Source of the DNA: an uncultured Bacilli bacterium
GTDB lineage: Bacteria; Bacillota_I; Bacilli_A; RF39; UBA660
Length of the DNA stretch: 64,000 bases
Reading direction: 5' to 3'
Assembly (NCBI GenBank): GCA_934154785.1
Contig: CAKPGL010000002.1
Coordinates: 75,805 to 139,804 of the forward strand
Below, in pieces: positions 8,516 through 34,544 of this stretch (its first letter is position 1; each line of letters begins with the position of its first letter). Position numbers and translations under genes: made by a program. The notes beneath the pieces are model-generated. The model had not been told where the DNA came from, did no database searches, and was given only the letters and a program-made list of their open reading frames with translations.

Positions 8516-10669
8516 ATGCAGAAGACTAGAAATAAGACTTTATTGTTGCTTATCTTTTTAGTTGGTATGGTATTGATTCCAAATAGAGCTTTGGCAGAAA
8601 CATTACCAGACAAAATTGGAAACATTTATGAATTAAGGGATAATGAAAGCTTAAAAGGATATACACCATTACGAATAGTAGCTGGTGGTGTTGCTAATTT
8701 AGGACATTATTTGGGAACTGAAACTCAATATTTACCTTATAAAATATCTGCTAGTTCAATAACCGGTACTGGGAGAGATGCAACTGTTACAGGAATTAAC
8801 TATGCTGTTTACTGTACGTTCTTTGGTAAAAATTCTCCAGCACAGAATTCTTATGTATCTTATTGTGGCGATGTTATTAGTGGCTGTTCTGCAACCGCTA
8901 ATGAACAAAAAAATCAAATCCCAGCTTATTGTACAAAAAAAAGTGGTTGGGATGAAGGTACTAAAGCAGGAGTAGCATATATAATTAAACAAGCTGGTGG
9001 TCGTACGTTTGGAGGTGCTAGTCTAGGTAATTATTATAATGCCGAAAGTACAATTAACCAATTTTTGTATGCTGTGAGTGTTAATAAAGATATTTGTAAT
9101 ATCCAAAAGTGTAATGCTGATTCTACTGGTGGTACTAATAGTGACAATAAAATTGTTGATTATAATACCACTGATGTAAATACTGCTAAAGCACTTCGAG
9201 ATACTGTTAATGCATTTACAAATAAAGGTGCATTAACAATAAACGCACCAACAAGTAAAGAATTAACATATGATGATGAAGCAAATGTCTGGAAATCTTC
9301 AAGATTTTCAATTAGTAATTTAGATAAGTATCCTAGTAATAATCAAGAAATAACTGTTGTTTTAAAAGATGCAAATGGTAAAACTTATCCTGGATATGCC
9401 TATATAACTAATATAGGTAGTGAGGTTCAAGTTGGTGTATGTAATAAAAACAATGGTGATTATTGTAAAGATATAACAAACTTTAAAAAGCTGACTTCTG
9501 GAACTTACACTGTAGAGATCACTGTTAAAGGTACTTATTCTTATGATATTGCTGAAAATTATGATTGTGGTACTTTATTTCAAAGTATTACACCTGCAAT
9601 TACAGATACGGTAAATGTTAATGAAAAACAATCTATAACATTTAATTTAAAGATTGCTGATGAACTTGGTTCAATTAAAATTAAAAAAGTAGATGCTGAT
9701 ACTAATGAAGAAGTTACTGGAGCTACAATTACAGTTAGGGGTAAAGATAACGATTTTAATCAACCATTTACATTAACTAATAAAAGTACTATTACAATAA
9801 ACAATTTAAAGTATGGTACTTATGAAATAATTGAAACTAAAGCACCAAATGGTTATGAAAAAGATACAAGAACTTATGAAGTTGTTATATCAAAAGATCA
9901 TCTCTTAGAAGAGGTGGTAATTTCTAATAAAAGAGTTGAAGATAAGGTTGGAATATTTTCTATATTGAAAATTGATGAATCCGGTAATAAATTAGGTGGT
10001 TCAACTTTTGAATATTATTATGATGGCGCTGATAGTGTAACATTTGAAAATGTCACGAAGGATGGAGTAAGAATCACAGATGTTACTTTAAATAAAAGAA
10101 TTTGTTTAGAAGAAACTAAAGCACCAAATGGTTATAAATTAAATTCTAAAAAATTTTGTTTTAAAATAATTGACACTGGTGAAATTAAATTAGATGAAGA
10201 TTATGATTTTATTAAAATAACTAAAAATAAAACAATGTATGTACTAAATGTAATTAATTATCCAGTTGATAAATCTATTGTTAAAATAAAAAAAGTAGAT
10301 TCTAAGGATAATACAAAAGTTTTAGCTGGTGCTAAACTTCATATAATAGATGAGTCAGGTAAAGAAGTAGTTGAACCTTGGATTACAACAACTGAAGAAT
10401 TTGTTATTACAGATTTAAAGGCTGGTAAATATTATATTGAAGAATTAGACGCACCAGAAGGTTATACATTAAATAAAACAAAACAAGAATTTACAATAGA
10501 ATCTAATGAAACTCGCATAACTATAGAGTTTATTAATGAAAAACCTGTTAATGTTCCTAATACTTTGTCTAATATATCTAAATTAGTTATTTTATTAGCA
10601 GTAAGTGGAATATTAGTAGGAGCAATTCTAGTATACAAAAATAAATTTAGTGAGGATGGTATAAAATGA
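8516..10669 (+). CDS. Sortase-dependent pilin/adhesin with three CnaB-type domains and a non-canonical sorting signal VPNTLSN.
   Basis: Signal peptide; three pilin E-box-like motifs (YEIIETKAPNGY, ICLEETKAPNGY, YYIEELDAPEGY). The C-terminus is ...NVPNTLSN, then a hydrophobic TM, then a KNKFSEDGIK charged tail. Confidence 0.75.
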   Translation: MQKTRNKTLLLLIFLVGMVLIPNRALAETLPDKIGNIYELRDNESLKGYTPLRIVAGGVANLGHYLGTETQYLPYKISASSITGTGRDATVTGINYAVYCTFFGKNSPAQNSYVSYCGDVISGCSATANEQKNQIPAYCTKKSGWDEGTKAGVAYIIKQAGGRTFGGASLGNYYNAESTINQFLYAVSVNKDICNIQKCNADSTGGTNSDNKIVDYNTTDVNTAKALRDTVNAFTNKGALTINAPTSKELTYDDEANVWKSSRFSISNLDKYPSNNQEITVVLKDANGKTYPGYAYITNIGSEVQVGVCNKNNGDYCKDITNFKKLTSGTYTVEITVKGTYSYDIAENYDCGTLFQSITPAITDTVNVNEKQSITFNLKIADELGSIKIKKVDADTNEEVTGATITVRGKDNDFNQPFTLTNKSTITINNLKYGTYEIIETKAPNGYEKDTRTYEVVISKDHLLEEVVISNKRVEDKVGIFSILKIDESGNKLGGSTFEYYYDGADSVTFENVTKDGVRITDVTLNKRICLEETKAPNGYKLNSKKFCFKIIDTGEIKLDEDYDFIKITKNKTMYVLNVINYPVDKSIVKIKKVDSKDNTKVLAGAKLHIIDESGKEVVEPWITTTEEFVITDLKAGKYYIEELDAPEGYTLNKTKQEFTIESNETRITIEFINEKPVNVPNTLSNISKLVILLAVSGILVGAILVYKNKFSEDGIK

Positions 10670-12096
10670 AATTAAAGAAAATATTTATATTGTTAATACT
10701 ATTGATTCCAGCAATATTTGCTGGTGGTATAGTAAAAGCTGAGGCAATAACATTTGGTGTTTATGCTAAAAAAGTTGGTACTTCAAATAGTGAAAAAATT
10801 GCTGGAGTTGGATATGAAATATATCAAGACAGCTGTTCTAGTGGTACTAAATTATATAGTGGTACTACAATACAAGGTGATTTTACACGCCATAGTATAG
10901 AAAGTGGTACTACTATTTGTATTAAACCAACAGAAGTACCGTCGACAGATTATAAATTACCTGGCGAAGCAATTAAAACTGTTACTGGTAGTAATAGCAC
11001 TCATGGTATTATTCTAGAAGAAAACACTAATAAAACTAAAATTAGCTTTGCTTATGCAATTACAGATAAAACAGATGGTCATATGATTGATAGTGGAAAA
11101 ATCAGAATTAAACAAGGTGGCGTAAAAGATAACAAATGTACTGGTACAGATATTAAAATCTCAGAAGATGGTTACGGTTACACTTCGAGTACTCCTGTAC
11201 AAATTGGCCCATATGAGTATACAACTGCTCCTAGTAAGGTTTGCATTGAATTAGTTGAAGAGATAGCGGGTTATCAATATCCAGCTGCTCAAGAATTTAC
11301 AGTTGATAGTGATTTAGTTAATACTTACTTGGTTCTTGATAAGAAAAGTACAGATGAGCCTAGCCAAAAAACCAGTTATACAATTGGATTAAAAGCGAAA
11401 GATACAAGTAAGTATTTAAAAGGGAAAATTACTATTACAGATGGTACCGTAGAAAATGGAAGTTGTAGTGGAAATGATCTTGTTTCTAAATTTACAATTT
11501 TCTCCGCTTCAACTAAAACTACTGCAATGCCAAAAAGTACAACAGGTCATATTTGCATAGAAGTTAATAGTTTAGATAACACAAGTTATAAGATACCAGA
11601 ACCAAAAGAATTTACTTATGAAGATGATGGTACTTATGAAATTGAGGTAGAAAAAAAAGATGATGGTAGTACTGTCACTCATCCAACAATAAAGGTTGGA
11701 TTTAAATATAAGGACAATTATGTAAAAGGTATTCAATTTGCAATTTATAAAAAAATGGGTTCTGGTGATAAGTGTAGTACTATTCTGAGAGATAGGTTAA
11801 CAAGTATTAGTAAATTACAATCTTTAGAACTTAGTTCACTTGAAGAAATGCCGAATTCAGTTTGCATTGAGGTTGTTCAGAGTAACCTTGGCAATTATAG
11901 TGTTAAAGAGCATGCAGTGTATACCGTAAAGAATGGTGTTGTGGAAATAGAACTTGGTGATAAAGTAATATCTCCCGATACTATGTCAAATGTATCTATA
12001 ATAGTTATTTCGGCCGGATTAATTGTTCTAATTTTGGGTGGTTACCTGTTATATACAAATAAAATAAATAAGGAGGAAAATTCAACTGAGAATTAA
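10666..12096 (+). CDS. Pilus subunit-like surface protein with four Cys-pair repeat domains and the sorting signal SPDTMSN.
   Basis: Signal peptide; four ~100-aa repeats, each with an N-terminal C(S/T)G and a ...CIE(V/L) motif. The C-terminus is SPDTMSN, then TM, then KINKEEN. Confidence 0.6.
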   Translation: MKLKKIFILLILLIPAIFAGGIVKAEAITFGVYAKKVGTSNSEKIAGVGYEIYQDSCSSGTKLYSGTTIQGDFTRHSIESGTTICIKPTEVPSTDYKLPGEAIKTVTGSNSTHGIILEENTNKTKISFAYAITDKTDGHMIDSGKIRIKQGGVKDNKCTGTDIKISEDGYGYTSSTPVQIGPYEYTTAPSKVCIELVEEIAGYQYPAAQEFTVDSDLVNTYLVLDKKSTDEPSQKTSYTIGLKAKDTSKYLKGKITITDGTVENGSCSGNDLVSKFTIFSASTKTTAMPKSTTGHICIEVNSLDNTSYKIPEPKEFTYEDDGTYEIEVEKKDDGSTVTHPTIKVGFKYKDNYVKGIQFAIYKKMGSGDKCSTILRDRLTSISKLQSLELSSLEEMPNSVCIEVVQSNLGNYSVKEHAVYTVKNGVVEIELGDKVISPDTMSNVSIIVISAGLIVLILGGYLLYTNKINKEENSTEN

Positions 12097-12110
12097 GAAT
12101 AGGTGAGAAG

Positions 12111-13733
12111 ATGAAAAAAAATAGATTATTTAATATATTAAAATTTTCTACATTAACATTGTTTACATTAGCTGCTGTGTTTCCTACAGTGATAAAGGCA
12201 GAAGATACAGATCCTGATGCTATTAAAATAGTAGAATATAGGGCTTGTACTGATTCGGGTGCTGGCTGGAAAGACCCAGAAAAATCAGCCGGATTAACTA
12301 TTGGTGCTAGTTCTAATTGCTTTTTGGCTCGAGGTTCTTCTTATAAATTAACAGCGTTATATAAAGACGGAACTTTGAATGATACTACGCCAACTGTTGC
12401 ACTTAGGTTAAATGTTAACTTACTTTCTCCGGCACAAGATAGATTAGATATTGTCAATAAAAAATTAGTTACTGATGATACTACTTGTAAAAAAATTGCC
12501 AATTATTATGGAAATGATGAGGGAATATATGCTGGACTAGGTCAGCTTTTAAAAGGTGTTGATGAAAGGCGTAAAGAGAAAAGTGATAATCACGTATATG
12601 TTACAACAGATGAACAGTATTTTGCTTCTTTGGCGATGAGTCAATTTATTTCTGAAAAATTAAACAAGAGTAGTTATGCATTAAAAGGCGAAAGTGTTTC
12701 AAATGACGCAATTGCAAGTCGTTATAATGAGTTAGAGGAAGGATATATTAAAGCTACTACTGCAGTACCAGCACAAATAAATAATAAAACTATTAAAACA
12801 TTTAAAATGCAATATATGATTGATGATAATAAAAAGGATTATTTATACAAATCTAGTTTTATTACTTTTAAAGATGCCACGCTATTAGATAAATATACTT
12901 CAAATAAAGGACAAGTTGAGTTATTTAACTTTACTTTAAAGAATAAAGATACCGGTGATTTATATGATGATTATGTTTATGCAGCAATTCAGAATAATAA
13001 ATCAACTAGAGCTCATGATTTAGTATATCAATTTGGTATTTGTGATAGTCTAGACTTTCAAGTAAAAGATTATGCAAATTGTAAGGCATTAAAGGGTAAA
13101 AAGTTACCTGCAGGTAATTACGAATTAGTTGTATCAGTTAATGATGCTATAACATATTCAAAAGTTAAAACTATTTATTCTTGTACATCTTCTAGTTCTA
13201 CTACAGGATATACACCTATTGTATTAAGTAATGGTAATTATTCAACTGCTAAAAATTCAATTAAATATGATTTAACAAGTGAATTTACAGTAGAATCAAA
13301 TCCAACACCTGTGGTTCCAGATGATAAACCAATAGAAAAAATTGGTACTATTAAGGTTAGTATTGTTGACAAAAATAAGAAATTATTAACTGGTGTTAAA
13401 TTTCAAATTTGTGAAGATAGAGATTGTAATTCAATAAAAAATACTGCTACTTCAACAAATGAATCTTATATTGCACCTAATATACCATTTGGTAAGTATT
13501 ATATTGTGGTTACTGAAGTACCTAAAGGATATGTTGTTCCTACTACAGTTGAAGTAGCTGAATTAAGTACTTCTAACACAGTTGCAGAAAAAACTATAGT
13601 AATAGAAGCTACTACTAATGTACCTGATACTTTATCTAATATATCTAAATTATTCTTGATTTGCGGTATAGTTGGTATAATAGCGGGAACTTATTTAGTG
13701 TATAGTAATGCTAAGAAGCAAGAAGAAGTATAA
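12111..13733 (+). CDS. Pilin/adhesin with a C-terminal CnaB domain and the sorting signal VPDTLSN.
   Basis: Signal peptide; CnaB-like block IGTIKVSIVDKNKKLLTGVKF...FGKYYIVVTEVPKGY. The C-terminus is VPDTLSN, then TM, then NAKKQEEV. Confidence 0.7.
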   Translation: MKKNRLFNILKFSTLTLFTLAAVFPTVIKAEDTDPDAIKIVEYRACTDSGAGWKDPEKSAGLTIGASSNCFLARGSSYKLTALYKDGTLNDTTPTVALRLNVNLLSPAQDRLDIVNKKLVTDDTTCKKIANYYGNDEGIYAGLGQLLKGVDERRKEKSDNHVYVTTDEQYFASLAMSQFISEKLNKSSYALKGESVSNDAIASRYNELEEGYIKATTAVPAQINNKTIKTFKMQYMIDDNKKDYLYKSSFITFKDATLLDKYTSNKGQVELFNFTLKNKDTGDLYDDYVYAAIQNNKSTRAHDLVYQFGICDSLDFQVKDYANCKALKGKKLPAGNYELVVSVNDAITYSKVKTIYSCTSSSSTTGYTPIVLSNGNYSTAKNSIKYDLTSEFTVESNPTPVVPDDKPIEKIGTIKVSIVDKNKKLLTGVKFQICEDRDCNSIKNTATSTNESYIAPNIPFGKYYIVVTEVPKGYVVPTTVEVAELSTSNTVAEKTIVIEATTNVPDTLSNISKLFLICGIVGIIAGTYLVYSNAKKQEEV

Positions 13734-14397
13734 TTTATCATTTGTTTTTGGTATTTTATTTATAATTTGTGGATTAGTTATTATACTTTACAATTATTTT
13801 GAAACCAAAAAAATTGAGAGTTTTGATAGTATGAGTATTGCTTTATTGGAATCTGAAACTCCTAGTAATATTGATGATGATTCTAATTTACCAAATGATA
13901 TAGAAGAACCTACAACTGATGATGAACCAAATCAACCTGATAATCCAGTTGTAGAGCGACCTAAGCCACAACCTAAACCAGTTGATTATACAAAGTATTA
14001 TGTAGGTACTCTTGAAATACCTAAGATAAATTTGAAAAAGGGATTTCTAAATATTGATTCACCATATAATAATGTTGATAGGAATGTTACCGTAATCAAG
14101 TCATCTGATTATCCAGATGTTACAAATGGCAATTTTATATTAGCGGCTCATACTGGTAGTAGTAGTATAAGTTTCTTTACTAAACTACACGATTTATCAA
14201 TTGGTGATTTAGCATATATTAATTACAAAGAAAAAAAGTATACTTATCAATTAGTAAATATATATACTCAGCCTAAAGTTGGTTGGATTAATATTTATCG
14301 TGATACAAGTAAAACTACTTTAACGTTGGTTACTTGTACTAAAAATACACAAGAAACGCAAACAATATTTATATTAGAATTAATAAATGTAGAATAA
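13708..14397 (+). CDS. Sortase (transpeptidase), presumably the pilin-specific sortase for this locus.
   Basis: N-terminal TM, catalytic His in LAAHTG, catalytic Cys in TLVTCT, and downstream Arg (IYRD). Overlaps the upstream pilin gene by 26 nt. Confidence 0.75.
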   Translation: MLRSKKKYNLSFVFGILFIICGLVIILYNYFETKKIESFDSMSIALLESETPSNIDDDSNLPNDIEEPTTDDEPNQPDNPVVERPKPQPKPVDYTKYYVGTLEIPKINLKKGFLNIDSPYNNVDRNVTVIKSSDYPDVTNGNFILAAHTGSSSISFFTKLHDLSIGDLAYINYKEKKYTYQLVNIYTQPKVGWINIYRDTSKTTLTLVTCTKNTQETQTIFILELINVE

Positions 14398-14411
14398 AAG
14401 GGAGTGTTAGT

Positions 14412-15200
14412 ATGATTAATTTTTCTTTCTCTGAAAAATTGGTTCAATTAAAAGATATTATTGTATCTTCTCCCTTTTTTTTTGTTTCTGTCATAATTGG
14501 TATTATCTTGTTAATAATTATGATTGTTGGGGTAAAGAAAAATCGTAGAATCAATAATATTATATTTATAGTATCTTGGATTTTCGTTGCAGTTTTTTGT
14601 ATTGCCCGTTATTTTAGTTTTTTTGTAAGTATCTTTGATAGATTATTTGGTAGAATAGTTGATGAGATATATTTTCCATCTATTTCTATTTATACAGTAA
14701 TGTTAATAACTACTAATATAATATTTGTATCTTCAATGTTTAAAAAGAAAGTTAATTCTTTGGTTAAAATTATTAATGTTGGATTTGCAATGCTATTAGA
14801 TTTCTTGTTTATTCTTATTTTAGATACTATTATGAAAAATAATATCGATATATCTGCCAAATTTGGCATATATACTAATTCATCTTTATTAATATTACTA
14901 GAACTTAGTATGACTATTTTCTTAATATGGTTACTTATAGTAGGAGTTTTGTATTTAATTAATAAATATGGTGTTAAAAAAGTATTTGTTAATGAGTATA
15001 AAGAAAAAGATTATGAAATTATAGATACTAAGAATGATGACATTAAAGATGATGGTTATATGGAAATAATTGATACACTAGAAGAAAAGACTAATGTAAA
15101 TAAAAATTTGCCAAATTCTAGCAATGATATATCAGAAATTATAGATTTAGAAGACGATAATACTAGCAAAAAAGATAATATTGAGATTATGAATATTTAA
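14412..15200 (+). CDS. Polytopic membrane protein with an acidic C-terminal tail; function unknown.
   Basis: Five to six hydrophobic helices, then a D/E/N-rich tail. Good SD. Confidence 0.4.
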   Translation: MINFSFSEKLVQLKDIIVSSPFFFVSVIIGIILLIIMIVGVKKNRRINNIIFIVSWIFVAVFCIARYFSFFVSIFDRLFGRIVDEIYFPSISIYTVMLITTNIIFVSSMFKKKVNSLVKIINVGFAMLLDFLFILILDTIMKNNIDISAKFGIYTNSSLLILLELSMTIFLIWLLIVGVLYLINKYGVKKVFVNEYKEKDYEIIDTKNDDIKDDGYMEIIDTLEEKTNVNKNLPNSSNDISEIIDLEDDNTSKKDNIEIMNI

Positions 15201-18988: not shown

Positions 18989-20698
18989 ATGTTTAAGGTG
19001 ATTTACTTGGAAAAATTAGATTCTATTTTTGAATATTATCAAGGTACTAAAGCATATTCCTTATTTTTATTAAACCAATTTGGCGATAATCAAAATGGCA
19101 CTTATATATTAGATAAAAACAACTACAATGCTGCTAGAGTAGCCTTTATTTCTATAATATTACTTGATATTAAAGAAGATATATTAGAAGACTTAGGAAA
19201 TTCTAATTTTAAATCTAATATATTTAATGATGAACTTATCAAATCAGTTAATTTACTTGCTACTAAAGATGGTGATAACTACGTAATAAACAATTACAGA
19301 TTTAAAGATGCTCCTACTTTAGTAGCGGTTCTTAGAAATAAACTTGCACATGGGAATTTTACTTTAGATACTGAACATTCTAGAGTTATAATTGATATAA
19401 ATGGACAAAACGTTATTCTTAATATAGATAAACTTGCCTTATTTGTTGCTTCATCTTTAAAAAACACTTATTTAAAAATGAAAAAAGGTAATTATACTAA
19501 AAATATTTTAATATCAAACAAAATATATGCTAATAGAAAATTACCTCTTTCTAAAGAAAAACTGATAGAGTTAATTACTACCTTTAATAAAATTAGTTTT
19601 ACTTTAGAAAATAAAGTAGGTGGTGATATACCTAAATATATTTTAGAGGAAGCTGATGCCTCAATTTATGCTTATAATAAAACTGGAGATATAAAATATA
19701 TAAATCATTTTAATAATAGTTATGAAGATTATAAATTAAACTCTACTAGAGAAAAAATAAAATATGATAAACAAAGTTTTGATTATATTGTGGATAATGT
19801 ATTGAAACAAACAGAAAAAAATAATTTATCTTATGATGCACAAGTAGAAGTATTAAAGCCTTTACTTGATAAGAAATTTTTAAAAAAGGAAAAAATCGAT
19901 GAAAGAATGGGTGCATTTAAAAATTTAATTTTATTAGATGCAGCTTATAAAATAAATAGTATTGATCAGAATAAAATAGGTAAATATATATCTACATATT
20001 ATACACCTGATACTTATTTTAGTATTAATAACGATTCTTTAGCGGCTTCCGCTTTAGCGATGTTTCAGGCTCTATTTTCATATTCTAATGATGATTTATA
20101 TAATGATGGTTTAGAATATGAAAATAATTATAATAGTGGTTTAGATTATTCCAAATTAGATTTATCAAAAATAAAAATTAGTTATATAGAACCTGATAAT
20201 AAAATTATAAGTATTCTAAATGAAAAGAAAGTAGCTAGAGAAAAAGGTATATTAGAATTACAAGGTTCTATAAATAAAAAAATGACAAATTTAAATAATG
20301 TTAAAGCAAAGGGTAATATTACCGCTATTGAAAATATAGAAAAATCTTTAATTGAGAGTAACGAAAATTTATCAAATCTTCAAAATGACTTAAATAATAT
20401 AAATCAAAAAATAAGTAATATTACAACGTATCAACTTAATAATAAATTACATTTAACAAATAAGGCTATAATTACTTGTATAAGAAATTCTATTGCTCAC
20501 GGCCATTATAAATTTGTATATTCTAATGATTACAGTGATGTTAAAATAGTTTTTAATGATATATACGAAGGTAAAATAACATTTAGTGCTGAAGTAAATA
20601 TAATTGATTTTATAGAATTGTTGTATGAAAATGATCATGTAATTATAGATTTTGTTGAAAATAATATAGAAAGAACTAGACAAGGTAAATCTATCTAG
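18989..20698 (+). CDS. Protein of unknown function with two HEPN-like Rx4HG motifs (LRNKLAHGNF, IRNSIAHGHYKF) flanking a coiled-coil segment; predicted RNase.
   Basis: Two R-N-x-x-A-H-G motifs at residues ~115 and ~510. Heptad-like N/L/I/K-rich segment at ~400-480. The start is uncertain: ATG 18989 or the TTG after the SD AAGGTGA. Confidence 0.45.
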   Translation: MFKVIYLEKLDSIFEYYQGTKAYSLFLLNQFGDNQNGTYILDKNNYNAARVAFISIILLDIKEDILEDLGNSNFKSNIFNDELIKSVNLLATKDGDNYVINNYRFKDAPTLVAVLRNKLAHGNFTLDTEHSRVIIDINGQNVILNIDKLALFVASSLKNTYLKMKKGNYTKNILISNKIYANRKLPLSKEKLIELITTFNKISFTLENKVGGDIPKYILEEADASIYAYNKTGDIKYINHFNNSYEDYKLNSTREKIKYDKQSFDYIVDNVLKQTEKNNLSYDAQVEVLKPLLDKKFLKKEKIDERMGAFKNLILLDAAYKINSIDQNKIGKYISTYYTPDTYFSINNDSLAASALAMFQALFSYSNDDLYNDGLEYENNYNSGLDYSKLDLSKIKISYIEPDNKIISILNEKKVAREKGILELQGSINKKMTNLNNVKAKGNITAIENIEKSLIESNENLSNLQNDLNNINQKISNITTYQLNNKLHLTNKAIITCIRNSIAHGHYKFVYSNDYSDVKIVFNDIYEGKITFSAEVNIIDFIELLYENDHVIIDFVENNIERTRQGKSI

Positions 20699-20723
20699 AC
20701 TAAAATTCAGGGGGGATATAAAA

Positions 20724-21719
20724 ATGGAAGGGACTAATAATTTATTTTCACAATTTAGTGAATTAGACAAAAAAGAATTAATTTCTTTTTTAGATAATTT
20801 TTATTTACATTATCGTAATAATTTGAATTTTAATGATACTACTTTAACTTTTGGTATTGAAATAGAATTTGAAAAAATTTTATTAGAGGAAGTAGAGCAA
20901 TTATTAATAAATAGTAATTTAAAAAACTGGTTAACCAAAAAAGAACGTTCTATAATTACGGGTGGTGAAATAAATAGTACTATATTAAATGATAATCAAA
21001 CAAATTGGTTAGGAATTAAAAAAGTTTGTTCTATTTTAAAAGAAAACAACGCTAAAATCAGTGAAAATTGTGGTGGACATGTACATTTTGGTAGTAATAT
21101 TTTAGGTGATAATTATAATAGCTGGCTAACATTTATAAAATGTATTATTGCTTTTGAAAAAGTTTTATTTAGATTTGGTTATGGTGAAGAAGTAAAAGAA
21201 AGACATTCTGTTAGAAAATTTGCTTATCCTGTTTCTTATTTATTAAAAGAAATACTTTATTCTGAAAATATAGACTTTAATAATATAAATACTGAAAAAC
21301 TATTAGATATTATAAAAGATAGAACTAGTAAAAGAAGTTCTGTTAGTTTTCAAAAAATTTGTATTAAAAATTTAGATAATATAAAAAATAATACAATAGA
21401 ATTTAGATTTCCTAATGGTACAATAGAAGAAATTATTTGGCAGAACAATATAAATACTTTAGGTAAACTTTTATTAGCGGTTAAAAATGATAAAATAGAT
21501 ATTGATGTTATTGATTTTTTACTTAAAAATATTCAAAAAGAAAGTAACATTAATATTTTACTAATGGACTATGGTTCTATTCATTTAAATACAGCTTTGT
21601 TATTTTGTGATATGATTTTTGATAATGATTTAGATAAATTATATTTTCTTCGTCAGTATATAAAAAATTCTTATAAAGATACTTATCAAGAACGTCAAAA
21701 AAAATTTATTATTAATTAA
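20724..21719 (+). CDS. Glutamine-synthetase-fold carboxylate-amine ligase (amidoligase)-like protein.
   Basis: N-terminal GxExEF-type strand (TFGIEIEFE) and metal-binding CGGHVHFGS, reminiscent of GS GSGMHxHxS and the Amidoligase_2/GCS2 families. Confidence 0.4.
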   Translation: MEGTNNLFSQFSELDKKELISFLDNFYLHYRNNLNFNDTTLTFGIEIEFEKILLEEVEQLLINSNLKNWLTKKERSIITGGEINSTILNDNQTNWLGIKKVCSILKENNAKISENCGGHVHFGSNILGDNYNSWLTFIKCIIAFEKVLFRFGYGEEVKERHSVRKFAYPVSYLLKEILYSENIDFNNINTEKLLDIIKDRTSKRSSVSFQKICIKNLDNIKNNTIEFRFPNGTIEEIIWQNNINTLGKLLLAVKNDKIDIDVIDFLLKNIQKESNINILLMDYGSIHLNTALLFCDMIFDNDLDKLYFLRQYIKNSYKDTYQERQKKFIIN

Positions 21720-21769
21720 AATGTAAGAATTATTTATTTATAGTATTCCATACTAATTATGGTGATAGT

Positions 21770-22204
21770 ATGAAGTATGTATTAAATATAATGATTCTTT
21801 TTATTTGTGTTTTTTTACTTTTAATTATAGATAATGATTATATAAGTGTTCCAGTTGTATCATTAGATAGTGATTATTATCAAATGTATGATATATATGC
21901 TGATAACTTAACTACTAAAAACTTTACTAAATACTTTAGTGATACATCTAATTTTATTGCGGTATATCCTGATATAAATTTAATTTATAAAGAAAAACTA
22001 GGTAATATATATTTTGAGTGTAAAAATAAATTTAACTTAGATGCTTTTATTTCTTATTATAAAAAAGTACTTGAAAAAAATAATTATAAAAATGATTTAG
22101 TAAATATTGATTATTATGGCGTTTCTATAAAAAAGATTATGGTATACGCTAATAAAGAAGAATTAGCACAAATTTTAAATAATTGTACAATTTGTTTTAT
22201 TTAA
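21770..22204 (+). CDS. Small protein with an N-terminal signal/TM helix; unknown.
   Basis: The ORF has SD TGGTGA; N-terminus MKYVLNIMILFICVFLLLII. Confidence 0.4.
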   Translation: MKYVLNIMILFICVFLLLIIDNDYISVPVVSLDSDYYQMYDIYADNLTTKNFTKYFSDTSNFIAVYPDINLIYKEKLGNIYFECKNKFNLDAFISYYKKVLEKNNYKNDLVNIDYYGVSIKKIMVYANKEELAQILNNCTICFI

Positions 22205-22246
22205 ACCTAGCTAGTATGTTATAATTACTATGTCAGGGGTGATTTA

Positions 22247-23086
22247 ATGATCTGTTATGGTATTAATGATATGTATCGTAAAGAAATATATAAATGTGAT
22301 GAAAAACAAATTTTATTATTTTTTGATGAACTAGATAGTGCCACTAAAAATATTTATTTACGTATAATGGTAACAGATGGTTTACAGGTTTTAGAAAGAA
22401 GAAGACAATATAATGAAAGTGATCAATATTCAAAAAGGTTATATAAAATTCTAAGTAATTCTGACTTTGAGCATATTAAGTCTGTTTTAGAAGATAACTA
22501 TATTTTATTTCAAGTATTATTTGTAAATGCTAAAGGATTTTATAAAATGCCTATCGTAGATAGATGTCTTTTAGTTGGAGAAAGAGAAAATAAAATCCTA
22601 AATTATAAATTACTATCTTTAAACCCTTTTTATCTAGTAGATGTTTGTGTATACACTATTCAAAAAGATATTGATAGTATTTACTACTATTATAATGATT
22701 ATCAAAATAAGTTAGGTAGTAAACAGCTTAAAAGTTTTTATCAGTTGGTCTTAGTAATGATGGAAAAACTAAAAGAGGAGAATACTAATTTATATAATAA
22801 AAACTTTTTAGAATTTTTAAAAAATTTTTATGTTGGAAATAAATTTTTACAATCTATAGATGAAATTTCTTCTTTAGAAACAAAACTTTATCATGATATG
22901 CTAGAAAAAGAGGAATTAGATTATGTAATAAGTCTTCTTGAAAGTACACCAGAAGATCTTATGAAAGTATTAGCGATTTCTTTTGCGTATCACTCAGATA
23001 TGGCTGGCACTAAAGAGGAGAAAAACTTTATAAATGAGAATGTTAATTCTGATATGATAAAAAAATTACAACTTAATAATAATTAA
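22247..23086 (+). CDS. Hypothetical alpha-helical protein (279 aa).
   Basis: The ORF has a strong SD AGGGGTGA and a -10-like TATAAT upstream. No motif recognised. Confidence 0.4.
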   Translation: MICYGINDMYRKEIYKCDEKQILLFFDELDSATKNIYLRIMVTDGLQVLERRRQYNESDQYSKRLYKILSNSDFEHIKSVLEDNYILFQVLFVNAKGFYKMPIVDRCLLVGERENKILNYKLLSLNPFYLVDVCVYTIQKDIDSIYYYYNDYQNKLGSKQLKSFYQLVLVMMEKLKEENTNLYNKNFLEFLKNFYVGNKFLQSIDEISSLETKLYHDMLEKEELDYVISLLESTPEDLMKVLAISFAYHSDMAGTKEEKNFINENVNSDMIKKLQLNNN

Positions 23087-23191
23087 AGAACTATTAGGAA
23101 ATTAACGAATATTTTCTTAATAGTTTTTTTAATAATGATTTGCTTTTTTTAAAATAATATTATAAAATATCCCTTGTTTTGGGGGATGATT

Positions 23192-26100
23192 ATGAAATCT
23201 ATCAGTGAGTTTGATTTAAAGGTTTTAGGTAACACTTTTATTCCAGATATTTTTAAAATTAAGATTATTAATAAACTTAGTATTGAAGACATTATATTTC
23301 ATCAAAAAAAATTTTGTCCTAATCTTGGATTGTTAGATGGGAATTATCTATTAAAATTAGGATTAAAATATCGTAAAAGAGAAATTCTTGAATATTTTAA
23401 GTCCTTTGATGTAGATGATACGGTAAATTTTTCTGTTTTAAAAAGTATACTTATAATAGATGAACATTTAAATAATTATATAATAAAGGTACTTGACATT
23501 TCTGTTATTGATAAACTTATTTCCGGTAATATAAATAGTGATGAAACTTTTAAAAGAATATGTAGGTTACGTAAGAATGATGTTTATGCATTAATTAATA
23601 CCGCTATTAAAGATAATAGATATCAAGATTATGTTAGTTATTGTACACCAGATAGATTAAAGGAGTATATTATAAAAAAAGTTGATATTAACTATCTAAT
23701 ATTGGATTTGACATCCACTAATTCTACTTTAACCAAAACTATTTTAAAGTATAGAAAAAAAGATATTGTTGAATATGTTAATTTAAACTCCAATAACATT
23801 CCTGAGTTAGAAAATTTGTTAAAAATGGATTTGCCTAAAGAAGTTTATAAAATGCTATTAGAGAAATTTCCTATTGATAATAGAATGATTTCTTATATAT
23901 TTTTACATTGTTCTACTGATTTAAAAGATTTATTATTTTTACTTTATCCAGATAAAGTATATGCTTGGGTGGATGAATTTCTAATTGGTGATAAACACTT
24001 TGATATAATTCAACTTAGATATAATAAATTAACATCTTATATTGTAAATAAGCTAAACCTTGAACAATTAGATGATGTAATAAAAGGTAATTTAACGATT
24101 TATTATAGTGACTTTATTAATGAATTATTTAAAGTTAGAAAAGAAGATATCATTAGTATAATAACAGAAAATGTTTCTTTAGATAATTCAAAAATAATAG
24201 ATTATTTATCTTTAAAACTACCTGAAAATATATTAAAGTCTATTATGTACTGCATTGATGTTAATGAAAACATATTAAATATAATTTTAAAAAATGGTAA
24301 TTCTAGTGTTATAGAAAATGTATTTAAAATATATAAAAATGAATTATTACTTATAATTAATAAAAATTCTAAAACTGATAGAATAGCATTCTTAGATAAG
24401 TATTTAAGACAATATGCTTATCCAATAACTTTACAAATAGAATTATTGAAAGACTTAACCGATGAAGAGATAATTTATATTATGTCACAAGGCGTTTTTG
24501 GATATGCGTTAAAGGATAAAATATATGAATTATATAAAGATAGAATTAATAAGATATACAGTAATTTATTATTAAGTGATATAGAAAAAGCAACTACAAT
24601 TTTTAAAAATTCCGCTATAACTGATTTTAGATCGGATATAATTAATAATTATGATTTTAAATACTTACGTTATTTTTTAGATGAAATGAATGAAACGGAA
24701 AAAGAAAAACTATATAAAAAATTCCCTAGGGAACTTAAAGAAATGCTAAGAGCTGAATATTCTAATGATTTATTAGAATTTATAAAAAGAAGGGTTTTAG
24801 ACTGCAATAGTGTAGTTTTAACTTTAAGCCTGAAGTTACTTACTTATGATGATATTATTTTTGCTTTAAAAAATAATATTGATTTTAAATATTACTATAA
24901 TGAAAAATTAAATAAATTAATGGAATCAGCTATAAAAAGTAAAGCTAATGATATAAAGAATTCTCCTTATGATGAATGTTTAATCTTTTTGAAGTCTCTA
25001 AGAGAAAAATTTGATGATTTATTTATTGTCTTTTTAAATAGCATAGAACTTGATGATGATTTCTTACATAAATTATTTATTGAAAGAGGTCTATCTGATA
25101 AACAAAAAGATATTTTATTTAAGATGAAAAGCAATGATATTTTAAGAATTGTTAAAAATAAATTATTAAATGATGAAGTAGATCCTATTGAATATATTCA
25201 AAAGGGTACCCCAGATGATGTGCTAGAACTTGCACTATCTTATATTGAAAAAGATAGAGTAATAAGTTTATTAAATGATCCCAATTTTATTAACAGAAAA
25301 AGTATTGGAAAAAGCTTTGCCTTAAAATTAGCCATAATAGTAAATGTTAATAAAGAGAATGTTCAAGAAGTAGAAAATCTTGTCAAATATTATTCTAAAG
25401 ATATATATGAATTTATTAATAATTATGAAAAAATATATTCTTTTTTAAAACTTAGTAGTATAGATGTTTCAAAGTTTTGGCAATATTCCTTAAATACAAG
25501 TTATAACTTTATAAGCGATATAGTTAAAATATACGAAGATGATTTAGATATGTTTTTACGTGTTAAGGATATATTATTTACATATGTTTATGATGATAAC
25601 AATAAATATTCTTATCAAAGTTTTGTAAATATTATAAAGAATTATAGTAGATATAAAAAACTATGTATATCACTTACTGAAGTAGAAAATTTAGGCGCAA
25701 TTAACTTTAATAATATTAAATTATTATTTAATCAAGATAAACTTATACCAAATATAAATATGTATAATGACTGTGGTAACATTATTAATGTGATAAAGGA
25801 TGAATATATGACAATGTTAAAAAAATGTTCATCAATTGATGAATATAAAGATACTTTATTACAACTATTATTTAATCACAATATTAAATCAGTTGAAGAA
25901 ATGCTTAATAATTATGGTAAAGTTAGTGATTTATTACAACTTAAATATTATAATTTACATAATAAAGAAGTATTAGATAAGATAGACTGTGTTATACCTT
26001 ATACTGAATTAATGGAAGAAATATTATATTGTGATGATATTAATGCTTTAAAAAGAACAATTGATGATACTATTAATAATATAAATTCTATTTTAGTAGA

Positions 26101-27487
26101 TTTTAATTATACTAATTACGATGATTTGATGCGCGAATTATACGCTATAGAAATGGATATGAACTTATCTAAGGTTGGTTATAATGTTGATGTAGATAGT
26201 GTAAAATTAGAAGAAAAATCTAAATTATATGGAGTAGATATATATGATTTTAGAGATAAGCAATATGCTTTATTAGCACATGTATTAAGTGATTCAGAAA
26301 ATATAGATGATTTAATACAGGGTAATTCTAGTGGAACATTTAATTTCATATCACTTTCCGCAATAAGTTATAGAATGCAATCATATTATTATGGTGCTAA
26401 AAATATGATATTTGGTTATGATGAAATGCCTAATTCTAATTTTGTTTGTAGTTCCGATAGCAACATGGGAACAAATTATTCAATAACAAAAAATTCAATT
26501 GAGATGACCCCTATTAATAGAAAACAAAGAGGCTTATTAGAAGTTAGTGATACTGATAGTAATTCTGAAATATTATCTTTAAGAGAAGGTATGAAACCTA
26601 AGTATATTATTTGTCCTGGTAGACTACCTTCTTCAGAGGAACTTAGATGTGCTTTAAAATATAATTTAAAAATTGTTTTAACTCAAGAAATTAATGAAAC
26701 TATTCTTTCTCCTAAACCAATTAATAAACTAGTAGAACCTAAACCTAAAGTATCAAAGGAATATTTAATAGAGTTTAGAAATAAAGTAATTAAAACTGGT
26801 AATAAAAATAAGGTAGCGGTTATAACAGATGCTCATGGTATATTAGAACCTACTTTAGCGGTACTGGAAGATATACGTAAAAAAGGAATAACTAAAATAT
26901 ATTCCTTAGGAGATAATATAGGTACTGGTTCTAATCCTAGTGAAGTGTTAGATATATTAAACCACTATGGAGTAAAAAGTATTAAAGGCAATCATGAATT
27001 GTATCTAATAGATGGGGTAGATGAGTATAAAAAGCATTTAATTGAAACTGGTGCGTATGAAGAGGAAACAATTAACACAAGTTGGACGCGTGACAATTTA
27101 ACAGCAGAACAAGTAGTAGATATATCTAAATATGATAATTATGTAGAATTAGATGTTGCGGGCAACAAGGTATTATTATGCCATTACTTATATGACTATA
27201 ATGAAAACAAACCATTATATGATATAACTAAATATGATTTAGTTATTCAAGGTCATAAACATTTTCAAGCACAATCTGGAAAAATTGTAACATTAAAAGC
27301 AATAGGTATTGGTAATAAAAGTAATGATGATATAGGTAACGCTACTTATATGATTATTGATTTAAATGATAAAGAACATCCATATGAAATAATAAATGTT
27401 CCTTATGCCTATAAAAACTCTATTAATGATGAAAATGTTTCTTCTAATAATTGTAAACAAAAAATAATGAATTGGATTGGTAAATAA
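23192..27487 (+). CDS. Giant (1432 aa) protein: ~1150-aa N/K/I-rich alpha-helical N-terminal region plus a C-terminal calcineurin-like metallophosphoesterase domain.
   Basis: The C-terminal ~260 aa carry an intact MPP motif set: ITDAHG (DxH), LGDNIGTG (GDxxxxG), GNHE, and GHKH. No Walker A anywhere. The start was moved to the ATG 8 nt after the SD GGGGGA. Confidence 0.6.
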   Translation: MKSISEFDLKVLGNTFIPDIFKIKIINKLSIEDIIFHQKKFCPNLGLLDGNYLLKLGLKYRKREILEYFKSFDVDDTVNFSVLKSILIIDEHLNNYIIKVLDISVIDKLISGNINSDETFKRICRLRKNDVYALINTAIKDNRYQDYVSYCTPDRLKEYIIKKVDINYLILDLTSTNSTLTKTILKYRKKDIVEYVNLNSNNIPELENLLKMDLPKEVYKMLLEKFPIDNRMISYIFLHCSTDLKDLLFLLYPDKVYAWVDEFLIGDKHFDIIQLRYNKLTSYIVNKLNLEQLDDVIKGNLTIYYSDFINELFKVRKEDIISIITENVSLDNSKIIDYLSLKLPENILKSIMYCIDVNENILNIILKNGNSSVIENVFKIYKNELLLIINKNSKTDRIAFLDKYLRQYAYPITLQIELLKDLTDEEIIYIMSQGVFGYALKDKIYELYKDRINKIYSNLLLSDIEKATTIFKNSAITDFRSDIINNYDFKYLRYFLDEMNETEKEKLYKKFPRELKEMLRAEYSNDLLEFIKRRVLDCNSVVLTLSLKLLTYDDIIFALKNNIDFKYYYNEKLNKLMESAIKSKANDIKNSPYDECLIFLKSLREKFDDLFIVFLNSIELDDDFLHKLFIERGLSDKQKDILFKMKSNDILRIVKNKLLNDEVDPIEYIQKGTPDDVLELALSYIEKDRVISLLNDPNFINRKSIGKSFALKLAIIVNVNKENVQEVENLVKYYSKDIYEFINNYEKIYSFLKLSSIDVSKFWQYSLNTSYNFISDIVKIYEDDLDMFLRVKDILFTYVYDDNNKYSYQSFVNIIKNYSRYKKLCISLTEVENLGAINFNNIKLLFNQDKLIPNINMYNDCGNIINVIKDEYMTMLKKCSSIDEYKDTLLQLLFNHNIKSVEEMLNNYGKVSDLLQLKYYNLHNKEVLDKIDCVIPYTELMEEILYCDDINALKRTIDDTINNINSILVDFNYTNYDDLMRELYAIEMDMNLSKVGYNVDVDSVKLEEKSKLYGVDIYDFRDKQYALLAHVLSDSENIDDLIQGNSSGTFNFISLSAISYRMQSYYYGAKNMIFGYDEMPNSNFVCSSDSNMGTNYSITKNSIEMTPINRKQRGLLEVSDTDSNSEILSLREGMKPKYIICPGRLPSSEELRCALKYNLKIVLTQEINETILSPKPINKLVEPKPKVSKEYLIEFRNKVIKTGNKNKVAVITDAHGILEPTLAVLEDIRKKGITKIYSLGDNIGTGSNPSEVLDILNHYGVKSIKGNHELYLIDGVDEYKKHLIETGAYEEETINTSWTRDNLTAEQVVDISKYDNYVELDVAGNKVLLCHYLYDYNENKPLYDITKYDLVIQGHKHFQAQSGKIVTLKAIGIGNKSNDDIGNATYMIIDLNDKEHPYEIINVPYAYKNSINDENVSSNNCKQKIMNWIGK

Positions 27488-27494
27488 TATATAA

Positions 27495-27540
27495 AAAGAA
27501 TCTACCAAGAATTAATCATTTAATTCCTGACAGATTCTTT
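27495..27540. terminator. Bidirectional nested hairpin (AAAGAATCT...AGATTCTTT enclosing GAATTAAT-cat-TTAATTC) between the convergent giant gene and the HIT gene.
   Basis: Inverted repeats read directly from the sequence. It overlaps the HIT stop codon. Confidence 0.45.
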
Positions 27541-27897
27541 TAGTATGTTATAAATGTCTTCTACTTTTTTAATTTCTTGTTTATCTTTATAAAATGGTTT
27601 TAAATGTAAATGAAAGTGTTTTACTTCTTGAATACAACCATTATTTTGAATTAAGGTTAAACCATCTATATGAAGTTTATCTTCAAGTAGTTTTTTCATT
27701 TTTTGTGCTATTTTAAATATGTGGTTCATAGTTGCTTCATCCATATCACTTAAATTTACAATGTGTTTTTTAGGTATAATTAATGTATGACCATTTGTAT
27801 CAGGGTTAATATCTAAAAATACTTTTACGATATCATCTTCATAAATAGTATAAGAAGGAATACTTCCAGAAATAATTTTACAAAAAATACAATCCAT
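27520..27897 (-). CDS. HIT-family (histidine triad) nucleotide hydrolase.
   Basis: Histidine-triad motif HFHLHL and the N-terminal CIFCKI motif. Confidence 0.8.
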   Translation of the reverse strand: MDCIFCKIISGSIPSYTIYEDDIVKVFLDINPDTNGHTLIIPKKHIVNLSDMDEATMNHIFKIAQKMKKLLEDKLHIDGLTLIQNNGCIQEVKHFHLHLKPFYKDKQEIKKVEDIYNILKESVRN

Positions 27898-32637: not shown

Positions 32638-33045
32638 ATGTTAGTAGGTAGTTATGGCTCTTTAGTAATGAAAGATAATACTATTAAAATCCCTAAAAAG
32701 TTACAAGGTGATTTTAAGAGTAGTATAATTGTAAGTTTTGATGCAAGTTTAGAATGTATTGTTATTATACCTATAGAGCGCTTGCCAAAGATTCAAAAAA
32801 AAGCAGAAAAAGCAAATAGTATGTTTGTTTCAATACTAAATAATTCAAAAACTTATTTGGTAGAAAAACCTGAAGTCTTAAAGATAGACCCAAATTTTCT
32901 GCAATTGGCAGGTATAAAAAGGGAATGTGTATTTTTAGGAATGTTAGATTATGTAGAACTTTGGGATAAAGAGAAGTTTGAGTCCTACTTTGCTAATATG
33001 GATGAAGAATACATTAAAGAGCAATTAAAAAAGTTTGGATTTTAA
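32638..33045 (+). CDS. Divergent MraZ paralog.
   Basis: Has the same length and two-repeat architecture as MraZ, but is weakly similar to the canonical copy downstream. It has its own TTTACT-17-TATAAT promoter. Confidence 0.5.
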   Translation: MLVGSYGSLVMKDNTIKIPKKLQGDFKSSIIVSFDASLECIVIIPIERLPKIQKKAEKANSMFVSILNNSKTYLVEKPEVLKIDPNFLQLAGIKRECVFLGMLDYVELWDKEKFESYFANMDEEYIKEQLKKFGF

Positions 33046-33189: not shown

Positions 33190-33624
33190 ATGTTTCTGGG
33201 TTCTTATTATTATACAATTGATGAAAAAGGAAGAATTGTTATTCCTGTAAAGTTACGTGCAGATTTGGGTAACGAATTTATTCTTACTTGTGACTTAGAT
33301 GGATGTTTATCACTTTATCCTAAAGCATCTTGGAATGTAATTATTGCTAAATACAAAGAATTACCAAATGTAAAAAATGCTCGTGCATATTTACGTTTTG
33401 TGTTATCGTCTGCTAGTAACTGCCAACTAGATAAACAAGGTCGATTAAGCATTAATTCTAATTTAATTCAATACGCAGGTATAAAGAAAGAATGTATCAT
33501 AATGGGTGTAGATGATCACCTAGAAATTTGGAGTAAGGAAAGATGGAATGAATTCCTTGCTAATAATCAAGATAATTTAGTAGCGATGGCTGATGAATTA
33601 TTTTATGGTACAAGTAATAAATAA
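33190..33624 (+). CDS. mraZ: Transcriptional regulator MraZ.
   Basis: MFLGSYYYTIDEKGRIVIPVKLR..., canonical MraZ. Confidence 0.85.
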   Translation: MFLGSYYYTIDEKGRIVIPVKLRADLGNEFILTCDLDGCLSLYPKASWNVIIAKYKELPNVKNARAYLRFVLSSASNCQLDKQGRLSINSNLIQYAGIKKECIIMGVDDHLEIWSKERWNEFLANNQDNLVAMADELFYGTSNK

Positions 33625-33626
33625 GT

Positions 33627-34544
33627 ATGCATATTAGTGTTTTATTAAACGAAAGTATTGAATATTTAAATTTAAAAGAAGATAGTGTAATAGTTGACTG
33701 TACACTAGGTTATGGTGGTCATAGTAGTAATGTGCTAAAGGAAATTAAAAAGGGGTTTCTTTTCGCCTTTGATCAGGATGAAGAAGCTATTAAATTTAGT
33801 AATAAAAGACTAAGCGAAATTGCTTCTAATTATGAAATTATTTATAGTAATTTTGTAAATATAAAAAAAGAATTAGAAAAAAGAAATGTTAAAGAGGTAG
33901 ATGGTATTTTATATGATTTAGGAGTATCATCGCCACAACTTGATCAAGCTGATAGAGGATTTAGTTTTCATAATGATGCAGTCTTAGATATGCGTATGGA
34001 TAAAAATCAAAGTTTGTCAGCACTAACTGTAGTAAATGAGTATTCTTTATCTGATTTAATAAGAATATTTCGTGACTATGGTGAAGAAAAATATGCTAGT
34101 AGTATTGCTAAAAAGATAGTTGACTATCGAAGTAATAAAGAAATTAGAACTACTGGCGAATTAGTAGACATAATTAAAACTGGTGTACCAGAAAAATATA
34201 GAAGAGAACATCATCCAGCAAGAAAAGTATTTCAAGCGATTAGGATTGAGGTAAATCATGAATTAGATGTTTTTGAAAGTAGTTTAAAGCAAGCTTTAGA
34301 TTTAATCAAAATTGGTGGTCGAATTTGTGTTATTACTTTCCATTCTTTGGAAGATAGAATTTGTAAAAATATATTTAAAGAAGTTAGTAGTGTTCCAAAA
34401 GAATTAGCGGGGTTACCAATAATTCCAAAAGAATATCAGCCTAAGTATAAAGTTATCGCTAATATAGCACCAACCAATACAGAAATAGATGAAAATATAC
34501 GTTCAAGAAGTGCTAGACTTCGTGTAATAGAAAGGGTAAGATAA
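33627..34544 (+). CDS. rsmH: 16S rRNA m4C1402 methyltransferase RsmH.
   Basis: HISVLL...GHS...YDLGVSSPQLD motifs. Confidence 0.85.
   Translation: MHISVLLNESIEYLNLKEDSVIVDCTLGYGGHSSNVLKEIKKGFLFAFDQDEEAIKFSNKRLSEIASNYEIIYSNFVNIKKELEKRNVKEVDGILYDLGVSSPQLDQADRGFSFHNDAVLDMRMDKNQSLSALTVVNEYSLSDLIRIFRDYGEEKYASSIAKKIVDYRSNKEIRTTGELVDIIKTGVPEKYRREHHPARKVFQAIRIEVNHELDVFESSLKQALDLIKIGGRICVITFHSLEDRICKNIFKEVSSVPKELAGLPIIPKEYQPKYKVIANIAPTNTEIDENIRSRSARLRVIERVR

Follow-up and report, generated by a model that had tools for sequence, protein, structure and literature searches.

A mosaic five-gene block in an uncultured Bacilli bacterium, with a giant phosphoesterase gene and a possible twin-HEPN partner

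Results

Five co-directional genes between a flavinylation module and the suf genes

We analyzed a 64,000-nucleotide (nt) stretch of DNA from an uncultured Bacilli bacterium (NCBI GenBank assembly GCA_934154785.1, contig CAKPGL010000002.1, positions 75,805 to 139,804; hereafter the window), and in particular a block of five forward-strand open reading frames (ORFs), A to E. These encode a predicted twin-HEPN protein (A), an amidoligase (B), two further proteins (C and D), and a giant phosphoesterase (E), and are followed by a convergent gene for a HIT-family nucleotide hydrolase (Table 1). A first-pass annotation, made from the letters of the window alone, had proposed that the five genes form one uncharacterized conflict or defense system. 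Our data show instead a mosaic, assembled from three units of separate evolutionary history: E, A, and a B-C-D cassette.

The layout of the block is as annotated, coordinates included: five tightly spaced genes, with intergenic gaps of 25 (A/B), 50 (B/C), 42 (C/D), and 87 nt (D/E), lie between an upstream flavinylation module (ApbE / NusG_II / Hpre_diP_synt_I / FMN_bind) and the HIT gene, with sufC/sufD/sufS as the downstream flank. A long hairpin bears out the terminator that the annotation had E and HIT share; five terminator-like sites were found, against 0.9 expected. The block has a G+C content of 18-23%, compared with 26-27% in the flanks and ~27% in the whole window, and this lower G+C is the only pointer to a foreign origin. 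Scans of the window for tRNAs and Rfam families gave no matches, we found no recombinase domain in the block or the adjoining genes, and no long direct repeats flank the block, the longest repeat pairs being 72-74% matches within E. The block thus carries none of the features (an integrase or recombinase, flanking repeats, a tRNA target) that mark an integrated mobile element or genomic island.

A Walker A motif is absent from all five proteins, in line with the reported lack of an NTPase motif in E. At E<=1, no model of PADLOC-DB v2.0.0 matches A-E, in agreement with the annotation, which recognized no named system in this combination; the flanking HIT gene alone matches ThsC. We considered HIT as a member of the block and rejected this, because HIT travels with sufC: the divergent HIT(-)/sufC(+) pair is kept at two related loci (L015 and L020) whose E gene is found beyond the opposite end of the suf genes.

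Table 1. Features of the window and of related contigs (aa, amino acids).
Feature	Sequence	Positions	Strand	Description
Block A-E	Window	18989-27487	+	Five ORFs
Gene A	Window	18989-20698	+	569 aa; predicted HEPN RNase of pEK499_p136 type
Gene B	Window	20724-21719	+	331 aa; carboxylate-amine ligase of the Amidoligase_2 family, described as glutamine synthetase (GS)-fold
Gene C	Window	21770-22204	+	144 aa; N-terminal hydrophobic segment (signal anchor or transmembrane)
Gene D	Window	22247-23086	+	279 aa; no known family
Gene E	Window	23174-27487	+	1437 aa from TTG 23174, or probably 1431 aa from ATG 23192
E mid domain	Window	26126-26788	+	Residues 985-1205
E phosphoesterase domain	Window	26786-27484	+	C-terminal, PPP/ApaH-like metallophosphoesterase
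Hairpin	Window	27494-27541		20-bp stem between convergent E and HIT; candidate bidirectional terminator
HIT gene	Window	27520-27897	-	HIT-family nucleotide hydrolase; Pfam HIT E=1e-22
Deleted A gene	L013	7323-7528		1.64-kb internal deletion
Split A gene	L099	3355-5021		304-aa and 251-aa ORFs
Variable restriction-modification island	L006	2573-11677		recG/DUF975...alr interval, with HEPN gene and D12 methyltransferase at its edge
Variable restriction-modification island	L100	7642-11677		recG/DUF975...alr interval, with HEPN gene and D12 methyltransferase at its edge
Polymerase fragment and 143-aa gene	L009	68-1536		Directly upstream of the twin-Rx4H/E-like pair
RimK-like ligase gene	L016	819-1748		Two genes upstream of an E homologue
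MraZ-type genes (135, 144 aa) and rsmH	Window	32638-33045, 33190-33624, 33627-34544		Two consecutive MraZ-type genes upstream of rsmH
Pilus locus	Window	8516-15200		Sortase-dependent

The five genes do not travel together

The complete A+B+C+D+E set was found in the source species alone. On a sister contig, L013, FMN_bind is followed by B-C-D-E-HIT-suf, with B-E at 82-96% identity (E, 91%). All that remains of A between FMN_bind and B on this contig is 58 nt from its start and 12 nt from its end: an ancestral A gene has here lost 1.64 kb from its interior, and B-E have been kept without it. Full-length homologues of E (51-53% identity) occur in four GTDB species, all without A-D. E follows HIT(-)-sufCDS-GtrA in L015, with sufS and a GtrA gene directly before E in both L015 and L020, and at L016-L018 it follows a signal peptidase gene and a variable gene set. 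No homologue of B, C, or D was found near ~37 other E-family groups, nor near the other A genes sampled.

In the largest A lineage (P0066/P0013, ~40% identity to window A), the A gene marks the edge of a variable restriction-modification island that is bounded by recG/DUF975 and alr. A D12 (Dam-like) methyltransferase gene always precedes it by one or two genes, and none of B-E occurs within 10 kb of it. In one genome, a ~40%-identity A is also accompanied by SocA, an N6_N4 methylase, an AlwI-type endonuclease, and GmrSD. On contigs L006 and L100 the HEPN gene and D12 methyltransferase are fixed at the island edge, and the SocA, N6_N4 methylase, AlwI-type endonuclease, and GmrSD genes are variable. 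The setting of this lineage matches the published description of the pEK499_p136 HEPN family, which has been linked to restriction-modification systems and further conflict loci (Anantharaman et al, 2013; PMC3710099).

The proposal of a single five-gene system does not survive these comparisons: the set is restricted to the source species, with no recurrence in unrelated genomes, and A was lost in L013 while B-E were kept. One part of the co-occurrence that the annotation expected does hold, in that A recurs with E; B, C, and D were found beside no other E-family gene.

Twin-Rx4H genes recur near E-family genes

Twin-Rx4H genes turned up no more than four genes away from members of the E family, in four arrangements that differ from one another. 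In the window, A lies at position -4 relative to E, with B-C-D intervening. At L074 it lies at +1 and starts 10 nt past the E stop codon. At L088 it lies at -3, in a tightly packed co-directional run of overlapping genes (A, S41 peptidase, DUF6019, E), and L099 has the same arrangement with A split in two ORFs. Finally, at L009 a 628-aa twin-Rx4H protein is encoded at -1 of a distant E homologue (36% identity over the C-terminal 715 aa); its Rx4H motifs, at 111 and 562, occupy the same relative positions as those of A, and the architecture is identical. The A proteins of the three further groups with such an A gene (L074, L088, and L099) are 31-36% identical to each other and to other A lineages, and the surrounding genes differ at each A-E locus. 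Directly upstream of the L009 pair lie a C-terminal fragment of a Y-family polymerase gene and a 143-aa gene, which we read, from sequence alone, as UmuC/YolD-like; such pairs are often carried by mobile elements.

E is a giant protein with a conserved mid domain and an intact phosphoesterase

The real start of E is probably ATG 23192, where gene callers place it on sister contigs: this codon is preceded by GGGG, and TTG 23174 lacks a ribosome-binding site. The protein consists of helical repeats (residues ~1-720), a conserved region (724-985), a mid domain (985-1205), and a metallophosphoesterase domain (1210-1437). The annotation's ~1150 aa of repeats before the phosphoesterase therefore has to be shortened, as the repeats end at ~720 and residues 724-1205 are conserved and non-repetitive.

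The phosphoesterase domain is intact, as annotated. Residues 1213-1397 match Metallophos_2 (PF12850; E=1e-10) and Metallophos (PF00149; E=2e-8), both above the Pfam gathering scores (42.4 bits versus 27, and 35.6 versus 21.5), and all eight metal-binding or catalytic residues are present (D1219, H1221, D1247, N1273, H1274, H1337, H1361, and H1363). By sequence, the nearest solved structures are the lambda Ser/Thr phosphatase 1g5b (E=5.8e-5) and 3qfm (E=1.5e-4), which we take to be Streptococcus pneumoniae SapH, an Ap4A hydrolase/phosphodiesterase; 2qjc, a putative diadenosine tetraphosphatase, is also among the closest. Motif II reads GDNIGTG in E; in an alignment of E with 107 family members, 83 of the 108 sequences read GDN[IV]GxG. 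The Asp-Arg pair of the GDxVDRG motif, typical of PPP enzymes, is missing across the E family. Judged by its best matches the domain is PPP/ApaH-like, but with GDNIGTG in place of GDxVDRG as motif II it is not a canonical member.

In the mid domain, H1036, Q1118, E1132, R1137, and Q1171 are invariant in a 29-sequence alignment. Across 112 sequences H1036 and E1132 remain at 100%, and an SSxxNxxxN motif (S1093, S1094, N1097, and N1101) is nearly invariant at 95-98%. No Pfam, NCBIfam, or PADLOC model covers this region. Its sole PDB profile match, to 3l2b/3l31 (annotated as a probable manganese-dependent inorganic pyrophosphatase), is marginal and local, spanning 34 residues at E=0.01. We also considered an ADP-ribosyltransferase or a SLOG/LOG-like domain, which motif resemblance alone suggested and no tool supported, and dropped both ideas.

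E belongs to a large, probably chromosomal family of uncultured gut and rumen Bacilli

Word-index searches missed most E relatives (three matches, then two), and the family came to light when 1.84 billion representative proteins were searched exhaustively with a profile built on residues 985-1205. At E<=0.001 this search returned 156 clusters at 50% identity, of which 147 also pass E<=1e-10. Nearly all clusters with a complete mid domain (107 of 111) continue with a phosphoesterase-sized C-terminus of 235-307 aa. All eight phosphoesterase residues are kept in 61 of these 107 family representatives, and 36 more differ just at the GNHE histidine, mostly by serine, so that the metal-binding ligands are all kept in 97; ~9% of members have a degenerate active site. 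The N-terminus varies in length; its median is 772 aa, and the longest reaches 2154 aa. One subgroup reaches 2400-2900 aa (P0237, P0241-P0243, P0252, P0254, P0256, P0262, P0265, P0269, and P0271), with the mid domain at ~2000-2300 and the phosphoesterase as the only part recognized by Pfam. Ten cluster representatives that we looked up come from metagenome assemblies alone, with no NCBI genome record and no meaningful name. A further protein, P0125, is encoded on a 1,024-bp ENA contig and is probably a chimeric assembly: the C-terminus of this 298-aa protein is an E fragment at 96% identity, and its N-terminus matches PF13354 and PF00768, presumably beta-lactamase / D-Ala-D-Ala carboxypeptidase families.

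A metagenome scan gave 244 confirmed contigs with an E-family member. We fetched 80 of these and combined them with the earlier E-family loci into 38 groups at 85% identity for neighborhood analysis. The 137 neighbors within four genes of the E family are mostly housekeeping genes, including those for ComG-type pseudopilins, RsgA/Obg-type GTPases, ABC transporters, radical-SAM proteins, MutL, NrdD, HAD phosphatases, and CysS, and three lineages share NrdD...E...MutL synteny. A tblastn search with E residues 724-1209 found nothing in phage and plasmid records, and the 2.9 million viral contigs of IMG/VR gave one marginal match. The E family consists of giant, unannotated cytoplasmic proteins of uncultured, AT-rich gut and rumen Bacilli. 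Because its neighbors are mainly housekeeping genes and it is missing from phage and plasmid records, with one marginal viral match, E looks like a lineage-specific chromosomal gene, and not the accessory-island cargo that the annotation had suggested. At L016, a RimK-like ATP-grasp ligase, an amide ligase of a fold unrelated to that of B, is encoded two genes upstream of the E homologue, which may be coincidence.

A is likely a twin-HEPN protein

The Rx4HG motif occurs just twice in A, as RNKLAHG at 116 and as RNSIAHG at 499; on these two copies the annotation had based its prediction of a twin-HEPN RNase. R116/H121 and R499/H504 are invariant across 37 homologues with 39-95% identity to A, and 34 of the 37 match PF18736 (HEPN pEK499 p136; best E=5.9e-5), with four matching PF18737. 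Window protein A itself has no Pfam match at E<=1, and the precomputed Pfam matches of its relatives carry weak or faint flags. An AlphaFold 2 (AF2) model of A (predicted local distance difference test, pLDDT, 79.5) contains two helix(Rx4H)-beta3-helix (beta-meander) modules joined by a long coiled-coil hairpin, and the two modules align to each other (hhalign E=2.5e-4). Fold searches with this model returned no HEPN structure, and a PDB sequence and profile search with A gave no relatives. HEPN membership of A is therefore likely, as supported by family-level sequence matches, and not structurally confirmed, because the fold searches recovered the coiled coil alone.

The A family is very rare, with 212 matches among 5.8 billion clusters, and tblastn of A against phage and plasmid records found nothing, as did a search of viral contigs. 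The twin-HEPN gene decays repeatedly, by the internal deletion in L013 and by the split in L099.

B, C, and D form an amidoligase cassette

B matches PF12224 over profile positions 66-241 of 245 (E=3e-12; 47.3 bits versus a cut-off of 22), which upholds its annotation as an amidoligase. It contains the annotated GxExEF and GGHVHFG motifs, as GIEIEFE (44-50) and GGHVHFG (117-123), and EFR (226-228), which are the putative acidic and His motifs of a GS-like active site. A PDB sequence search with B gave no relatives, and nothing was found in phage records or viral contigs. Exact copies of the protein occur on at least 22 contigs, among them contigs of ENA and Logan assemblies, one of these from a Hadza sample, and more distant relatives occur in metagenome-assembled genomes labelled Bacilli, Erysipelotrichaceae, or Bacillota. 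The nearest annotated relatives of B, at 27% identity, are the 'amidoligase family protein' of Clostridium perfringens pCW3-type plasmids (103 records). We had expected a paper on polyvalent proteins to mention amidoligases; it does not, and we dropped the idea.

C has a hydrophobic N-terminus (MKYVLNIMILFICVFLLLII), consistent with its annotation as a signal or transmembrane protein. Pfam, NCBIfam, PADLOC, and PHROG gave no matches for C or D, and PHROGs and NCBIfam nothing informative for any of A-D. D is absent from viral contigs, and neither C nor D has detectable relatives outside the source species. The B-C-D cassette probably has a mobile-element origin.

Other features of the window

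Outside the block, the window contains two consecutive MraZ-type genes upstream of rsmH, a duplication of mraZ that is unusual; their Pfam labels were taken from the near-identical sister contig L013. It also contains a sortase-dependent pilus locus, encoding three SpaA-domain proteins (717, 476, and 540 aa, with labels taken from sister contigs), a sortase, and a 262-aa protein.

Discussion

We tentatively favor, with less than even confidence, a mosaic in which A and E are a functional but facultative pair. The amidoligase cassette B-C-D would have been inserted between the members of this HEPN and giant-phosphoesterase pair, with E as the resident member of a large family and A as a facultative, easily lost partner. 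A is the sole component with a conflict-system pedigree, and may be a latent toxic RNase effector. E would be a large sensor or scaffold enzyme that may gate A, its two putative catalytic domains making or removing a phospho- or nucleotide-linked signal. B is predicted to ligate an amine or amino acid to a carboxylate group. The acceptor would be a small molecule or a protein, with C and D as possible candidates, and the function of B could be independent or modifying.

Several observations weigh against such a pair. E stands alone in ~80% of lineages and A also occurs without E nearby, so the two are not mutually required. A count of adjacencies speaks in favor of the pair: by our own estimate, which assumes one A gene per ~1500-gene genome, chance alone would give ~0.13 A-E adjacencies in ~24 evaluable lineages, versus 3-4 observed. 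The observed count nevertheless carries an ascertainment bias, as L074 and L088 were located via E. One of the counted arrangements involves the 628-aa protein of L009, whose alignment to A (hhalign E=0.086) does not demonstrate homology. An AF2 model of E residues 985-1437, built from four sequences, was unusable (pLDDT 38). Loci with both A and E also encode a ResIII/TnsA-like nuclease, an OLD-family ATPase-TOPRIM protein, and a Schlafen-like protein, and because of these other defense-type genes the adjacency could reflect a shared island and not a shared function.

This last point leads to an alternative that we consider rather unlikely but take seriously: the flank of E may be a hot spot, in which A, B-C-D, and the OLD, Schlafen-like, and ResIII-nuclease genes are independent cargo with no functional tie to E. 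All loci with A beside E hold other defense-type genes, two further loci give strong HerA matches, and RhuM and a DUF1016 fragment adjoin the E homologue in L018. The gene content upstream of E differs between L016 and L017/L018 within the same bounds, set by the signal peptidase gene and a 102-aa gene, and A is lost or split while E persists. However, because the chromosomal contexts of E differ among A-bearing lineages, such a hot spot would need to travel with E. The operon-like spacing (10 nt at L074, overlaps at L088) and the constant co-direction of A and E also speak for a pair, as does the recurrence beside E of a family as rare as A. A different alternative, to which we give somewhat less credence and judge unlikely, denies any conflict role: the E family would serve a housekeeping or physiological purpose specific to its lineage, either as an enzyme or as a scaffold. 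A protein phosphatase, or a phosphodiesterase of dinucleotides or cyclic nucleotides, carried on a large helical platform would be an example; B-D would then be a small metabolic or envelope cassette and A an unrelated neighbor. The dominance of housekeeping neighbors, the conserved NrdD-E-MutL synteny, the position of E directly after sufS and GtrA in L015/L020, and the near-absence of the family from mobile-element collections, save for the one marginal viral match, all fit this alternative, as do 1g5b, 3qfm, and 2qjc as closest solved phosphoesterase relatives. Against it, E-family sequences diverge fast, their N-termini vary widely in length, and the active site is degenerate in some members; the repeated association with HEPN proteins also suits conflict proteins better than core enzymes.

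We find it very improbable that A-B-C-D-E is one co-evolved five-gene defense system. The tight co-directional spacing, the terminators before A and after E, and the lower G+C would agree with a unit, and with no PADLOC match such a system would be novel. Yet the combination exists in the source species alone, the sister strain has lost A and kept B-E, and no B, C, or D homologue lies near the other sampled E or A genes. Judged by the co-occurrence of homologues in other genomes, which the annotation itself had named as the measure, the five-gene reading is largely refuted. A broader proposal, which we regard as doubtful though clearly less so, is that E-family giants are the conserved chromosomal core of an unrecognized conflict or surveillance system of uncultured gut Bacilli that controls plug-in effectors. 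Here the giant E would sense an invader or stress, and its enzymatic domains would control the twin-HEPN RNase and, at this locus, possibly also the products of the amidoligase cassette.

For the favored pair of A and E, the failure of the five-gene unit means that cloning effort on the wrong unit can be avoided: the minimal unit worth testing is A plus E, for example the adjacent L074 pair, and not five genes. The object that emerges is a family of at least 156 protein clusters known from metagenomes alone, which combines a domain covered by no family model with an intact phosphoesterase and lies repeatedly beside twin-HEPN genes. If the pairing is functional, E would represent a new class of sensor or regulator for HEPN-based conflict systems. 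Even without a functional pairing, the family stands out as uncharacterized in gut Bacilli that are abundant.

We found no description of the E family or of its pairing with HEPN proteins in the family libraries and papers searched. A and B each add a new member to a family that is already known. With the known anti-phage systems of PADLOC-DB v2, of which no model matches A-E, the block shares just general parts, namely a HEPN RNase and a phosphoesterase. B belongs to the same Pfam family as the amidoligases of pCW3-type plasmids and is 27% identical to them over 77% of its length. Unlike B, the plasmid proteins are 468 aa long with an extra N-terminal region, are encoded after dcm and DUF4417 genes, and have no C or D homologues nearby. 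Like 1g5b and 3qfm, E has DxHG, GDxxxxG, GNHE, H, and GHxH motifs in the same order; unlike them, its phosphoesterase is the C-terminal 230 aa of a protein of a family spanning 1100-2900 aa, and always follows the mid domain. A resembles the pEK499_p136 HEPN family (PF18736) in its Rx4H motifs, in the profile matches of its homologues, and in the restriction-modification neighborhoods of one A lineage. It differs in carrying two Rx4H modules and a long coiled-coil hairpin in one 569-aa chain, and in lying below the detection limit of the Pfam model. The published partners of that family are restriction-modification genes, ART-like enzymes, Macro, NamA-like nucleases, and Pgl components, with no giant phosphoesterase listed (Anantharaman et al, 2013; PMC3710099), whereas the partner here is a giant phosphoesterase.

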